DNA from: a virus
Lineage: Duplodnaviria > Heunggongvirae > Uroviricota > Caudoviricetes
Length of the DNA: 64,000 bases
Strand: one strand, 5' to 3'
Virus record (IMG/VR): IMGVR_UViG_3300050190_000017
Under the pieces are notes generated by a model that did no database searches, was not told where the DNA came from, and saw nothing but the letters and a program-made list of their open reading frames with translations. A program made the translations under genes and the position numbers. This document shows, in pieces, positions 5,407-50,179 of the stretch; positions within the stretch are counted from its first letter, which is position 1; the number at the start of each line of letters is the position of its first letter.

Positions 5407-8400
5407 GCTACTGCCTCCGCAATTTGTTTATCCAAGTTGAGCACATTCAGAAGTGGGAATTTCTTTTGCAGGAAGTTCCGCATATCTTTATCTCTCCACG
5501 GCTTTAGTATCTCGTCCATAACTTCGTCCTCTGTACCAACGAGCACGCCTAGTTCATTAGCATCGTGGACTGCCTTCTTGAGATTGGCAACCAGATTAGG
5601 TAACGCCCAGTCCCATTTGTAACTCAAGTCATCCCTAGCCGATACCTCTAACTCGATCTCAGGCTCGACGGTAAAGTCCACGTTGAACTCATCCTTGTAT
5701 GCCTTAGTAACACCATACGTTGCTTGGTATTGCAGAACATGGATGAATGGAATAACCATAGAGTACGGCACTGCATAGTAATTCGCATCATGAACACTAC
5801 GATTAAACGGCACACGTAACTCCCATTCCTTCTTGGTAATACCCAACTTCTCTTTGAAGATTTTCAGATTCTTATAGTACTCGGTGAAGATAAGTCGCCC
5901 GGCCTTCATCCCTACTTCCGAGGCCATGCCCTGGACTGGCGCATTAGAACCACGACGTACTTGCTTGGCAACAATCATTCGATCTTTGGTGAGGGCAGCG
6001 GGCAGATACTTGCGCCTACCAATTGGGGAGTACACTTGGTATTCGTTTTCTGCCGATTCACTCATGCGCTCCGTCCACTTAGCACCGGCGCGGAACTCAT
6101 TGAACATCTTATCGATAATATTCTGAGCGTATGCCGAACGATCTTCCTCAAGCAATGCCGTGAGCTTCAAGTCTAGTTCTTCGAGCATACGATTTATCTC
6201 AACAATGCGCTTCTTATCCTTCGACACCAGGGTCTCATTGTAGAGTGCGGAGATCTTACCTTTGAGTTCACTAAGTTCGCCTTGCTTAGTGTCTTGGCCC
6301 AAGGCCTCTGGCCCCTTACCGTATAACACCCCAAACACAACGGCTTTCACTGCGTCACGCAATGGGTGTTCTTTATCGACCAGCTGACCAAAGAATCGTA
6401 AGACGTTCAAGATATGAACGTCGCCCTTCTCTTTGATAGCCTTCTTGTTTGCATCGGATGGGTCTTGAATGAATGCCCTACGAAGTTTCTGTCCTGCCTT
6501 AAATGTCTCTGCCAGTACCTTGTCGTTAGCGATAATAGACCATACACGAACTTCATGTGCTGAATAGTCATAACGGATTAGGAGGTAACCCTCGGGGGCC
6601 ACAAACATGCGCTTGATGATCTTCGCCAGAGGTCCTCGGTTGACAATGTTCTGTAGGTTAGGATTCTTAGACGAGGTACGACCTGTGGTAACAATCTCGT
6701 AGTCTGCACGAAGGTGGTCATCGGTTGCGCCATCGAGATTGGTGGTGATCTTCTTGTAGAATCCCTTAACGTAAGTTGACCGCAACTTGGATAACTTTTG
6801 ATGGTCACCATACAAGGAGACCACCTTGTTCTTATCCTTGTAGAAGTCGATGTAGTTCGAGTCAATCTGATCCGCACCTGATTTAGTCTTAGACAGTGCG
6901 GGGAGCCCCAAGATCTCAACGAATAGCTTCTGCTTGTGGGCACTCTTACCTAAGCTAAACATCCACGAGGGACTTGCAGAAGCAAATAGAGAGCCTGCCT
7001 TAAATCCAGAGTTAGCCAATAGCTCTTTGTTAGCCTGTTGGACTTCCTTGAACACCTTGAACTCACCCTCAGTGCGTTTCAGTTCTGCCAGTAATGGCGA
7101 CTCAGAAGACAGCAAGTGCTTGAGGTATGACCGGGATACATTTGAACCGTCTTCACGAAGATGTGACAGCTGGTGTGCCGTATCGGACATCTGGTGTAAC
7201 ATGTGCCGGACAAAGTAAGGCTTGAAGTTCTTGCCCCCGATAGTTATGTGCGAAGCCATTGCTATCTGCTGCTTTCGCATTGCCAACAGACAGGTAACGT
7301 CCTTTGCTCCATACTGTAGGAATCCTTTGTCTCGTGGGTCAACGGTACCTGTAGTACTCCGATCAGCCTTACTGAATCCTTCCTTGGTATAATAGAAGTC
7401 ATCCCCGTATGAGCAGAGTATGGCAGCTAAGTTACCGACCTTCACGCCCTGCGAGGACAGATCAACGAAGTTATCATCAAGTGACTGCTCACCGTACATA
7501 ATCTCCCACACCTTTAACCAGATGATAGGGATCTTTAGGCAGCGTCGTATAACCCGAAGATCAAACATACCGTTGAACGTGACTAGCTCAGGACCTGTTT
7601 TAGCCGAGAATCGCTTACGCAATTCCTTCTTGATATATTTCCTATCTTCTACAGACCAGTGACACAGAGGATGGTCAACTGCTAATACATAGCCGACTTC
7701 CTCATTGTGATTGGTCGCCATCTGAATCGTGTAGATCTTATTGTGGAGTACGGATAGGTTACGTGTTTCAGTATCGACCGCACACACCTCTGCGTCATCA
7801 AATCGCTGCATCAGTCTATCGAACTTCTCAAGCGTGTCGATGTAACGTGGGGTACTCTGTATGTGCGATAAGTCATGAGGATTCTTACCCAGCATCAAGT
7901 AAGAGAAGTGTCTACACCAGAAGCCTAACAGGTTGGCTTTCTCGCCACCCTTTTCCAGAAGCCGTGCGAAGTCTAAAGTAGAGGTCACCTTGAACTTAAG
8001 ATCACCGGAGGTCAAGTTATGAACCCAGCCCCGTTTGAATTCGGAGTTCTCCACCTGAGGGAAGATTGACTTCATTGCTTGGTCGCCAGAGACCAGGATA
8101 TGAGTTGGCTTGAGCTTCTTGATAGCCTGATTGATACGAGCAGCGAATGCTTGTTCGGATTCGTGCTTGGCAGTGCCCTTCATGTGCAAGTGGCGCCAAC
8201 CATTATAGTTGAGTACAGCGTAAGCTGCTTCTGGTACTCCATCTTCCTTGTAGGCCCCTGCTAACTTGCGGGTGTAGTCAATGGACGAGTGGAAGGCAGT
8301 CTTGACTGAACGATCACCTAACAGTTCTTCTGCTTTAAGGTCACGCCCGTCTACCGTTTGGAGAACAATTAGAATACGACGTTTAGAATTATCCCAGTTA

Positions 8401-47710: not shown

Positions 47711-47721
47711 AAGGAAAAATC

Positions 47722-48303
47722 ATGGAAGTAACTTCGGCCCCATATCTAGTAGACCCAGTTCAGTTCGGTCTAAAAGATTTTGAAGACAACAGACGTAAGT
47801 TACAAGAGCTGTACACGAAGTACACACATGAGCAAATCTCGATTTATAATGAGTTACCACTGGTAGAGTTTAAGATCTCTAGTAAAGAATCGTACATTGT
47901 TGCGATTTCCGATGAAGCGGAGATCGTGTATCTAGTACATCTCAAAGCAGAGAAGTTACTTCAGCTACCCTCAAATAGCGTTACCCAAGTAGCGGTGTGG
48001 CGCCGCGCAGGTAACTCAGCCGTTACCGGATTAGCGAAGTTTGTAGTGTTCGAGATTCTTCTGCATAGGTATAACTATATAGTCTCAGATGCGTCTCAGA
48101 GTGATGATGGGAAGCGCTTCTGGCTAGACCTATTGGGCAAAGCAACAAAGTCTGGACATAAAGTAGGTGTTATGTTTGATACGAATCCGGTTGACTGGCA
48201 GGACGATTCATCCTTTAGGCTGTGGCTACGGTGCATCGAGTCAGAAGCCTGGGGACATAATCTACAGAAACACTTCTACTATCGTTTTGTAATTGCAGCT
48301 TAA
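47722..48303 (+). CDS. GNAT-fold-like protein, paralog 2
   Basis: Colinear with 39714..40292; IVSDASQSDDGKRFW. Confidence 0.55.
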   Translation: MEVTSAPYLVDPVQFGLKDFEDNRRKLQELYTKYTHEQISIYNELPLVEFKISSKESYIVAISDEAEIVYLVHLKAEKLLQLPSNSVTQVAVWRRAGNSAVTGLAKFVVFEILLHRYNYIVSDASQSDDGKRFWLDLLGKATKSGHKVGVMFDTNPVDWQDDSSFRLWLRCIESEAWGHNLQKHFYYRFVIAA

Positions 48304-48323: not shown

Positions 48324-48707
48324 ATGCGACAAGTCACGAGCCACAAAGTAGCAGGCAACGAAAAGAATGAACTATTTATTGCCGTAACAGACGAGCCAGG
48401 TGCCGGCGGTGCTAGCCACGAGTATGTTGCGTACTACTCTCCAGACCCAGAAGGTATAGAATACGCAAGCCCTATTGTGAATATCAATTTCCAGAACGGG
48501 CCGATCCCTGTGAATGGTATCAACGGCGTTACTCACGAAGTCCTGTTGGCAATCGTAGCAGATCGGCTTAACTCATTTCAGATTGGTCCCTATCCCTGCG
48601 CTGAGAATGATATGGCACTGCATCACGTAGTTCAAGCACTTAACTGGTTGAAGCAGCGCACTGAAGATCGTATCAAGCGTGCAGTCGAAGGTCAACTCAA
48701 AGCGTAA
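48324..48707 (+). CDS. tad1: Tad1 (Thoeris anti-defence 1) signal-sponge protein
   Basis: GAGGASHEY, INFQNG, LLAIVADRLNSFQIGPY..EN..AL.HV..AL.W...R.EDRI.R.V.G match the recalled Tad1 pattern along the whole length. Confidence 0.85.
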   Translation: MRQVTSHKVAGNEKNELFIAVTDEPGAGGASHEYVAYYSPDPEGIEYASPIVNINFQNGPIPVNGINGVTHEVLLAIVADRLNSFQIGPYPCAENDMALHHVVQALNWLKQRTEDRIKRAVEGQLKA

Positions 48708-48758
48708 CATGCTGGCGCCCCGAGAGGCGCTAACTAACAACATAAAAAGAGAAAACAA

Positions 48759-49469
48759 ATGGCACGCCTTCCCCGTCTATTCATTCCTAACGAAGTACAG
48801 TACGTGATTCTTGACACCATATCTGGAGTCAATCCGTTCCCTGCCCTGGCCGATCAAGCAAAGTTTTATAATCTGCTCGTAGCGAATGCCAAACGCCACG
48901 ACTTGAAGATCCATGCGTACTCTATGCTCCCTAGCGGTGTTCAACTACTTGTTACCCCAGGTAACGATCAAAGTTTATCGAAAACAATTCAAGGTGTAGG
49001 CCGCACATATGTTGCTCTATACAATAGGGCCTACAAGCGGAGTGGCACGCTGTGGCAAGGCCGTTATCGCGCTACCGTTGTAGACTCCGCTGAGTGGTTC
49101 CTACGTTGCTCTGTTCTAATTGACGCAGAGGCTGCTACGCATCAGTTACCTAGCAAAGCATCTAGTCAGCTACACAACCTAGGCGTTTCCCTAGATACAA
49201 ATTTGACGCCTCACGCTGAGTACTGGGCCTTGGGCAATACTCCCTTCGCGCGCCAGGCGGCATACTCGAAGCTTGTAGCGGAGTCTGTATCTGAGCAGCA
49301 CGCCAAGACAATTATCAAGTATGCTCACGCAGGCTGGGTACTGGGTGGCGAGGAGTACCGTGCTACCGTGGCACCAAAAGCTAACCGTCGAATTGACGAG
49401 CTGTCCCGAGGCCGCCCTCGTAAAGATGGACTACCTGTAGTCTCTACTCTGGCAAAGGAAAGATCATGA
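48759..49469 (+). CDS. Catalytically inactivated REP-associated tyrosine transposase (RAYT) homolog
   Basis: MARLPRL, IHAY, RSGTLWQGRY, PHAEYWALGNTPFARQAAY, GWVLG and GRPRK conserved; HUH reads SGVQ and YIxxNP reads LIDAEA. Confidence 0.85.
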   Translation: MARLPRLFIPNEVQYVILDTISGVNPFPALADQAKFYNLLVANAKRHDLKIHAYSMLPSGVQLLVTPGNDQSLSKTIQGVGRTYVALYNRAYKRSGTLWQGRYRATVVDSAEWFLRCSVLIDAEAATHQLPSKASSQLHNLGVSLDTNLTPHAEYWALGNTPFARQAAYSKLVAESVSEQHAKTIIKYAHAGWVLGGEEYRATVAPKANRRIDELSRGRPRKDGLPVVSTLAKERS

Positions 49470-49678
49470 GTAAAGTTAAGCGGTGGGATAAAATACAGGG
49501 TGCGCGAGTGGAGTCTCCGCAGAAGGTTGAGGACTTCATAGCGGCGTACGACGAACTATGTCGTGTGCATGGCCTTACCCTTTCGCATGAGGACGGTCAT
49601 GGGTGCTTCATCATAGAGAATCTAAGTGAACGCAATCTCGATCGGGTTAAGGACGCACGTCTTCGACTTGAAGATTAA
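49466..49678 (+). CDS. Hypothetical protein
   Basis: 70 aa, coupled. Confidence 0.7.
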   Translation: MSKVKRWDKIQGARVESPQKVEDFIAAYDELCRVHGLTLSHEDGHGCFIIENLSERNLDRVKDARLRLED

Positions 49679-49687
49679 GGAATAACG

Positions 49688-49882
49688 ATGCGTGAAAAGT
49701 ATGTGGACGAGAAGATTGGCATCTACATGATCTGGGGAACACGTCCTGACGGTACTGTAGACGTGGCAGACCAACGTGGGGATATTTTTGATGGTATACC
49801 AAAGGACGTTGCTGAGAAGATCATAGCGGCACATGATCTGTTTCGTCATACCGTCTATGACTTACTATGTACGAAAGTGTAA
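49688..49882 (+). CDS. Hypothetical protein
   Basis: 64 aa, AAGGA RBS. Confidence 0.7.
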   Translation: MREKYVDEKIGIYMIWGTRPDGTVDVADQRGDIFDGIPKDVAEKIIAAHDLFRHTVYDLLCTKV

Positions 49883-49891
49883 GGAACGATC

Positions 49892-50179
49892 ATGCAACTC
49901 ACACAGAAAGAGAAAGAGCTTCTCGCTAACACGTTGAAGGACCGGTACGATCAGTCGCACAAGTACAATGTAGGTGACATGGAACTGGGTTCCACGGTTA
50001 TCGTTCGTTGTGCGGAGAAGGTCGACGGTGTAGAGGATGTAGCCCACGCTATCCTAGTTGTGTTCCGTCAGAACAGGAAGGACACGCTGCTCGCCTCTAT
50101 AGACTTCGACACAGTTGATCCAAGCTACAGGCTTAAGCACGAGGAGCAGGTGGCACCTCTCGTAATTATACGGGGCTAA
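49892..50179 (+). CDS. Hypothetical protein
   Basis: 95 aa, AAGGA RBS. Confidence 0.7.
   Translation: MQLTQKEKELLANTLKDRYDQSHKYNVGDMELGSTVIVRCAEKVDGVEDVAHAILVVFRQNRKDTLLASIDFDTVDPSYRLKHEEQVAPLVIIRG

Follow-up and report, generated by a model that had tools for sequence, protein, structure and literature searches.

A catalytically dead TnpA-Y1 subclass 2.1.1 protein in a jumbo phage belongs to a conserved, selected branch of the family

A 236-aa protein encoded by a jumbo phage has the fold of the Y1/HUH transposases, has lost all of their catalytic residues and is a member of TnpA-Y1 subclass 2.1.1 (TIRYT, 'Group 1 RAYT'), not of the REP-associated RAYT kind found in E. coli. The protein is probably a host-derived, non-catalytic binder of nucleic acid, taken by a jumbo-phage ancestor from a Burkholderiales-type host and kept under purifying selection. 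Loss of the catalytic residues is itself widespread in the bacterial relatives, among which the dead branch is conserved and under selection.

Introduction

The cellular benefit of RAYT-type domesticated transposases is considered an open question (Bertels et al. 2017, PMC5581495). In the classification of Quentin et al. (2018, PMC6006769), subclass 2.1 is equated with the Group 1 RAYTs (PMC5581495) and with the TIRYTs (Di Nocera et al. 2013, PMC3733652), and no REPs are known for this group (PMC6006769, PMC3733652). Family sequences without the core motifs were put aside in the same study as probably non-functional (PMC6006769). Described members of subclass 2.1.1 are ~235 aa long, with a WSS/SS motif after the core and a C-terminal extension; they carry NH[VYF]H and YIELNP, and inverted repeats of the GGGGWSAS type often flank their genes. 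In the E. coli protein TnpAREP (RayT), H59, H61 and N119 are metal ligands, Y115 is the nucleophile, and K82 and R97 make base-specific contacts with the hairpin (PMC3479197). A literature search turned up no functional work on subclass 2.1 or on its member gene upstream of gltB described below.

Results and Discussion

The gene and its locus

The window analysed here is a stretch of 64,000 nucleotides, part of a 218,861-bp virus record (IMG/VR IMGVR_UViG_3300050190_000017) with direct terminal repeats, that is, a jumbo phage. The RAYT-like gene (48759..49469, plus strand) stands in a block of small accessory genes. A sequence-only reading of this DNA had described an intact open reading frame with a ribosome-binding site and coupling to the following gene, and all three features are present: the frame is uninterrupted, a weak AAGAG Shine-Dalgarno motif lies 7 nt 5' of the start, and the TGA stop shares bases with the ATG of the following ORF (ATGA, 49466-49469). 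This translationally coupled ORF (49466..49678, plus strand) encodes 70 aa and had no family match in a domain search. It is deleted in one phage relative, L002, and unrelated genes stand in its place in another, L003.

Two details of the local sequence were observed beside these features. A 14-nt repeat comprising ribosome-binding site and start codon, AAGGAAAGATCATG, occurs at three gene starts in the window (47711-47724, 49455-49468 and 49881-49894). The deletion of the 70-aa ORF in L002 falls between two copies of an AAGGAA ribosome-binding-site repeat; as a result the RAYT-like frame continues in frame into the next gene and yields a 300-aa fusion (L002:1111-2013, compared with window 49455-49700).

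A Y1 transposase fold with a family-specific extension

Homology of the phage protein to Y1 transposases is weak by sequence and clear by predicted structure. The Pfam family Y1_Tnp is matched at E 1.7e-4 and 22.2 bits, slightly below its 23-bit cut-off, and the NCBIfam equivalog REP_Tyr_transpos (NF047646) at E 3e-4 and 20.6 bits, which does not reach the 80-bit cut-off; phmmer with the single protein had no match in the PDB. With a profile of 122 homologs, ISDra2 TnpA is reached at E 0.002 and E. coli TnpAREP (4ER8) at E 0.005; the HUH and Tyr positions line up, and the alignment to 4ER8 covers residues 6-145 of the phage protein. AlphaFold2 modelled the protein with very high confidence (pLDDT 95, pTM 0.89). 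The top PDB match of the model is again 4ER8, at a Foldseek E of 4e-6 and a TM by target of 0.69; in Swiss-Prot the model matches E. coli RayT (Q47152) over query residues 1-148. These structural matches, together with the profile alignment, place the Y1 HUH-endonuclease fold shared by RAYT/TnpAREP in residues 1-148 of the predicted structure (48759..49202, plus strand). The sequence-only reading had the protein colinear with RAYT from end to end; this is incorrect, because nothing in the 165-aa E. coli protein corresponds to residues ~149-236.

The additional part begins with a helical extension (49203..49403, plus strand) that is specific to the family, conserved in the 122 homologs and modelled with high pLDDT. 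The conserved C-terminal motifs are YWALGNTPF.R..AY and GW.LG, both in the extension, followed by RR......RGRPRK. Residues 126-236 folded alone gave a pLDDT of 84.7, and this fragment resembled no solved structure in Foldseek against the PDB (E >8) or with VIA-align (best Z 2.0); no Pfam family matches the extension either. The helix-turn-helix domains Bac_DnaA_C, HTH_23 and HTH_28, as in subclass 2.1.2, were considered, and since the extension alone matches no solved fold, such an assignment is without support. Beyond the extension a flexible tail (pLDDT 67-74) carries the AT-hook-like basic motif R217-G-R-P-R-K222 (49407..49424, plus strand), in which G218 is invariant and R219 near-invariant among the 122 homologs, R217 and P220 being invariant in the 19 nearest. 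The motif has the form of an AT-hook, with an R-G-R-P core, basic flanks and a disordered segment around it, and judging from this motif the tail may bind DNA.

The known systems closest in fold differ from the phage protein in several respects. E. coli TnpAREP, with its catalytic H59, H61 and Y115, its association with REP/GTAG sequences and a short autoinhibitory tail, is ~11-14% identical to the phage protein, which in contrast has no catalytic residues, no REPs, a ~90-aa extension and the RGRPRK tail. The IS200/IS605 TnpA proteins (ISDra2, IS608) share the Y1 core fold and are ~140-aa obligate dimers encoded by multicopy insertion sequences with subterminal hairpins, whereas the phage gene is single-copy and has neither element ends nor catalytic residues.

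Assignment to subclass 2.1.1

A large protein collection holds 3603 homologs of the phage protein, and an exhaustive search of 50%-identity representatives returned 994 clusters with E <1e-10. The best cellular homologs align with residues 1-222 at E 1e-48 to 1e-54 and 40-47% identity; they are ~230-240 aa long, or longer where low-complexity tails are present. Burkholderiaceae and Oxalobacteraceae have full-length homologs at 37-47% identity. Full-length homology to ~238-aa proteins, the C-terminal extension and the SS motif (S136 is conserved) all identify the phage protein as a member of subclass 2.1.1, in agreement with Table 1 of PMC6006769, as do the lack of REP association, the low copy number and cellular homology down to E 1e-54. 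It departs from the described members in being phage-borne and in lacking the HuH motif (NHVH or NH[YF]H), YIELNP, and flanking inverted repeats with a GGGGWSAS core.

As a member of subclass 2.1, the phage protein falls outside the REP/GTAG-associated kind. The sequence-only reading had linked it to host REP hairpins and thereby built on the wrong relative, since subclass 2.1 has no known REPs (PMC6006769, PMC3733652) and the score for the REP transposase equivalog falls as far short of its cut-off as given above.

Catalytic positions are lost and contact positions kept

Residues of the phage protein were mapped to TnpAREP through the profile alignment, with residue roles taken from PMC3479197. 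The HUH motif is degenerate (48933..48944, plus strand): S59-G60-V61-Q62 aligns with NHLH or DHVH of intact orthologs and with H59-M-H61 of 4ER8, so that the metal-binding histidines H59 and H61 correspond to G60 and Q62. In the Tyr motif (49116..49133, plus strand), L120-I-D-A-E-A aligns with YIELNP of intact orthologs and with Y115...N119-P120 of 4ER8; the nucleophile Y115 has become L120, and Asn-Pro has become Glu-Ala, with E124 at the position of N119. Both the HUH metal-binding motif and the catalytic Tyr in Y-x-x-x-N-P of RAYT/TnpAREP are hence absent. At the N-terminus, VQYVILDTISGV stands where xQHVILRGNNRQ is expected. The replacements had been read from the sequence alone exactly as the alignment gives them, including loss of the N-terminal HH/RGNNR, and the fold match together with the replaced H, H and Y bears out the description of lost catalysis on a retained scaffold.

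The positions that contact the hairpin in TnpAREP have fared differently. K82 and R97 correspond to R82 and R102 in the phage protein, near-invariant and invariant, respectively, among the 122 homologs; the W-x-x-R and alpha-C basic hairpin-contact positions of TnpAREP are retained. The N-terminal arginines R3 and R6 are also invariant in the family, and the phage protein keeps every residue that is invariant or near-invariant in the 122 homologs.

Catalytic loss is widespread in bacterial relatives and fixed in Burkholderia sensu lato

The sequence-only reading had treated loss of catalysis as domestication in the phage, a view that the bacterial relatives contradict. In the 151 representative clusters most similar to the phage protein, both HUH and Tyr motifs are absent from 86, HUH only from 32 and Tyr only from 5, and both are kept in 28; as the sample was ranked by likeness to a dead query, the dead share is perhaps inflated. 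An alignment-free regex re-check found both motifs absent in 85 of 140. In Burkholderia, Paraburkholderia, Trinickia and Caballeronia the loss is fixed, all 56 of 56 orthologs being dead (xxVQ or xAVH, and VVEMxP). Orthologs of Pandoraea and of most Oxalobacteraceae are intact, with NHLH/DHVH and YIELNP, and HUH has been lost independently in some Herbaspirillum, Undibacterium and Massilia.

The bacterial genes are orthologs of one another and occupy a constant position: gltB lies directly downstream, on the same strand and within a few hundred bases, at 77 of 80 Burkholderiaceae and Oxalobacteraceae loci (L004-L083; e.g. L007:4001-4714). Copy number, checked in two genomes, was one in both, and in an even sample of Burkholderiales 73 of 151 species had a match, mostly one per genome. 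Between the genomes compared, dead orthologs share 84-99% of their amino acids, and their dN/dS of 0.015-0.11 indicates strong purifying selection. The motif-less branch is conserved and under selection, contrary to the view of such sequences as probably non-functional (PMC6006769). Because the ortholog keeps losing HUH and Tyr and is nevertheless strongly conserved, the function retained by the family needs no DNA cleavage.

Two observations on gene context stand apart from this. In Burkholderia sensu lato, ompW and a ugp operon are found on the side of the ortholog opposite gltB. One representative, P0136 on a 3.5-kb contig (L087:1440-3313), lacks the HUH histidines and still has Y at the Tyr position; unlike the genes in the gltB context, it directly follows two minor-pilin-like genes (N_methyl with GspH; ComP_DUS). 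The contigs that carry three dead representatives were too short to inform on their gene context.

Origin and maintenance of the phage copies

Two phage relatives of the protein were found, P0001 on L002 (96% identical) and P0002 on L003 (59% identical). Together with the query they form one clade (support 100/100) on a stem of 0.88 substitutions per site, inside the Burkholderiaceae and Oxalobacteraceae group; at its point of attachment the tree is a polytomy. The GC content of the gene (~0.50, vs 0.48 for the phage genome) equals that of the phage, and the capture is therefore old.

The comparison with L002 gave 21 synonymous and 9 non-synonymous differences (dN/dS 0.13), and that with L003 a dN/dS of ~0.16 at saturated synonymous sites. 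Tad1 and the upstream 193-aa gene gave similar values. A dN/dS near 1 among relatives had been proposed as the mark of decay, and the two values point to purifying selection instead. A pseudogene was considered as well and rejected in view of dN/dS and the retained invariant residues.

Neither tblastn of the protein nor megablast of the locus against 50,697 records of isolate phages gave a match, no close relative came up when IMG/VR was scanned with the single protein, and a metagenome scan with the phage-clade alignment yielded nothing beyond relatives of 30-35% identity. An IMG/VR scan with the 19-sequence family alignment A1 returned only L084, L085 and a fragment, L086. L084 (171,762 bp) encodes a 277-aa homolog at 6001-6834 with a broken HUH motif (NAVH), nesting in the dead Burkholderia clade with Caballeronia nearest at 50% identity; the only other match between L084 and the present phage is one short protein segment. 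This placement marks the L084 gene as an evident independent phage capture of an already dead gene. The gene adjoins a member of the N4 gp49/Sf6 gp66 family and groups with Caballeronia/Paraburkholderia orthologs, and the contig is jumbo-phage-like. L085 was left out of the phage captures because the position of its gene, at one edge of a Mu-like prophage contig, means that it could belong to the host.

The Tad1 neighbour

As the sequence-only reading had recognised, the gene directly follows Tad1: the upstream neighbour (48324..48707, plus strand) is a true homolog of Thoeris anti-defence 1 (PDB 8kbb, E 2e-18; 7uav, E 2.7e-16), and its ortholog in L002 carries PF24729 (Acb2_Tad1_hairpin). A Tad1 homolog stands immediately upstream of the RAYT-like gene in the window, L002 and L003; downstream of it, L003 and the window have unrelated genes. 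The two independent comparisons are suggestive of a pair that is kept together, and plain synteny is compatible with them too. No further Tad1 relatives were found in IMG/VR.

The spacer between the two genes contains a small GC hairpin with a 6-bp stem (48714..48731, plus strand; fold -13.5 kcal/mol), which is not significant against shuffled sequence (z -1.56). L002 retains the stem around a different loop, and L003 has no such stem.

What the protein may do

The reading that we consider probable is that of a non-catalytic subclass 2.1.1 protein of host origin. Most of the closest sampled bacterial relatives are dead as well, so the phage probably stole a DNA-binding protein rather than inventing one. 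An ancestral jumbo phage would have acquired the gene from a Burkholderiales-type host, and the protein would act as a nucleic-acid-binding module without cutting. R82 and R102, which match the hairpin contacts, are candidate contacts along with R3, R6 and the RGRPRK tail. In the infected cell it might replace the host ortholog, or compete with it, at the DNA targets of the host protein. Several findings count against this explanation. The C-terminal extension has no match to a known DNA-binding fold, the terminal-repeat motif of intact bacterial orthologs is not enriched in the phage genome, the phage clade attaches at a polytomy, and the dead share of the family was counted among the hits most like a dead query. 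Burkholderia genomes have a GC content of ~62-67%, and that of the phage genome, 48%, is well below it. A wider version, which we put forward tentatively and think unlikely, is that dead subclass 2.1.1 proteins are exapted DNA binders, specific for a sequence or a structure, that serve the cell, perhaps in connection with the adjoining gltBD locus. Burkholderiales jumbo phages would then have captured the gene at least twice, mimicking or displacing the host protein at takeover, and fixed a Tad1 partner in one lineage.

Other readings give the protein a different task or none. It could be a counter-defence factor acting with or beside Tad1 that sequesters the nucleic-acid trigger or the effector of host immunity, so that Tad1 and the dead RAYT form an anti-defence module. 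Anti-defence genes cluster, the surrounding region is composed of small accessory genes, and the Tad1 homolog persists directly upstream in the window, L002 and L003 despite the different downstream genes of L003. However, these three contigs amount to two independent comparisons, no Tad1 or defence-related gene is recognisable beside the independent L084 copy, and the bacterial orthologs are conserved genes beside gltB, outside defence islands; we regard this role as unlikely. The proposal made from the sequence alone, that the protein binds host REP (GTAG-hairpin) DNA or is a dominant-negative poison of a host RAYT/HUH enzyme, draws on the fold match to E. coli TnpAREP bound to a REP hairpin and on the two hairpin-contacting positions retained as Arg. 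It is very improbable, given a subclass without REPs (PMC6006769; PMC3733652) and an equivalog score of 20.6 bits against a cut-off of 80. The nearest solved relative, E. coli TnpAREP, is a monomer and so offers no precedent for poisoning by mixed dimers either, and the nearest cellular homologs, in Burkholderia and its allies, are already dead, which leaves no active ortholog to poison in such hosts. Sequestration of retron msDNA, another suggestion of the sequence-only reading, is likewise speculative.

A gene without function in the phage, either a neutral passenger or what is left of a captured host gene in decay, would fit the long stem of the phage clade (0.88 substitutions per site) and the fusion by deletion of the L002 frame to the downstream ORF. 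The dN/dS of 0.13-0.16, the presence of all family-invariant residues, the very confident model, a frame intact in all three relatives and a fully ameliorated GC content, which implies long residence in the phage, make this more improbable still. Least credible of all, and hardly to be entertained, is an enzyme in which other residues have taken over from HUH and Tyr. The protein does have H52 and H128, and E124 stands in for the metal ligand Asn119 of TnpAREP, but both HUH histidines and the nucleophilic Tyr have become G, Q and L. The residues found at these positions differ freely from one dead bacterial member to another, a pattern that speaks against another conserved active site.

These results correct the view that motif-less family members are merely broken, and reveal no new mechanism. 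In a large branch of the RAYT family the scaffold has stayed under strong selection although all catalytic residues are gone; a conserved Burkholderia gene beside gltB is part of this branch, and on at least two occasions phages apparently acquired the dead form. This makes the Burkholderia ortholog, itself dead, and the small phage protein simple subjects for studying the non-catalytic function.

Repeats in the phage genome and around bacterial orthologs

The absence of flanking REPs reported by the sequence-only reading holds, and extends to terminal inverted repeats, of which none was found around the phage gene. Across the 218,861-bp phage genome there is no REP-like repeat family, and no 16-mer occurs more than 4 times; the REPs or REPINs that accompany RAYT/TnpAREP, flanking or genome-wide, are accordingly missing. 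Some intact bacterial orthologs have a terminal-repeat motif, GGGGTCAG/CTGACCCC, which is not enriched in the phage genome and therefore points to no target there. Inverted repeats of this motif were found neither around dead orthologs nor around the phage gene. Inverted repeats with the GGGGWSAS core lie on both flanks of 3 of 17 HUH-intact orthologs, vs 0 of 63 dead ones.

The repeats differ among genera. TIRYT-type inverted repeats (GGGGTCAGAGT ... ACTCTGACCCC, beside AT-rich tracts) flank intact orthologs of Collimonas and Noviherbaspirillum, and Herbaspirillum and Pandoraea orthologs have copies downstream only (loci with TIRYT-type repeats: L062:3943 and 4817; L073; L075; L077:4787-4846; L067). 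The 63 HUH-dead orthologs have none of these repeats; on the gltB side of the gene they show only CCCCAAT(A/T)AAA-like remnants, located before gltB.
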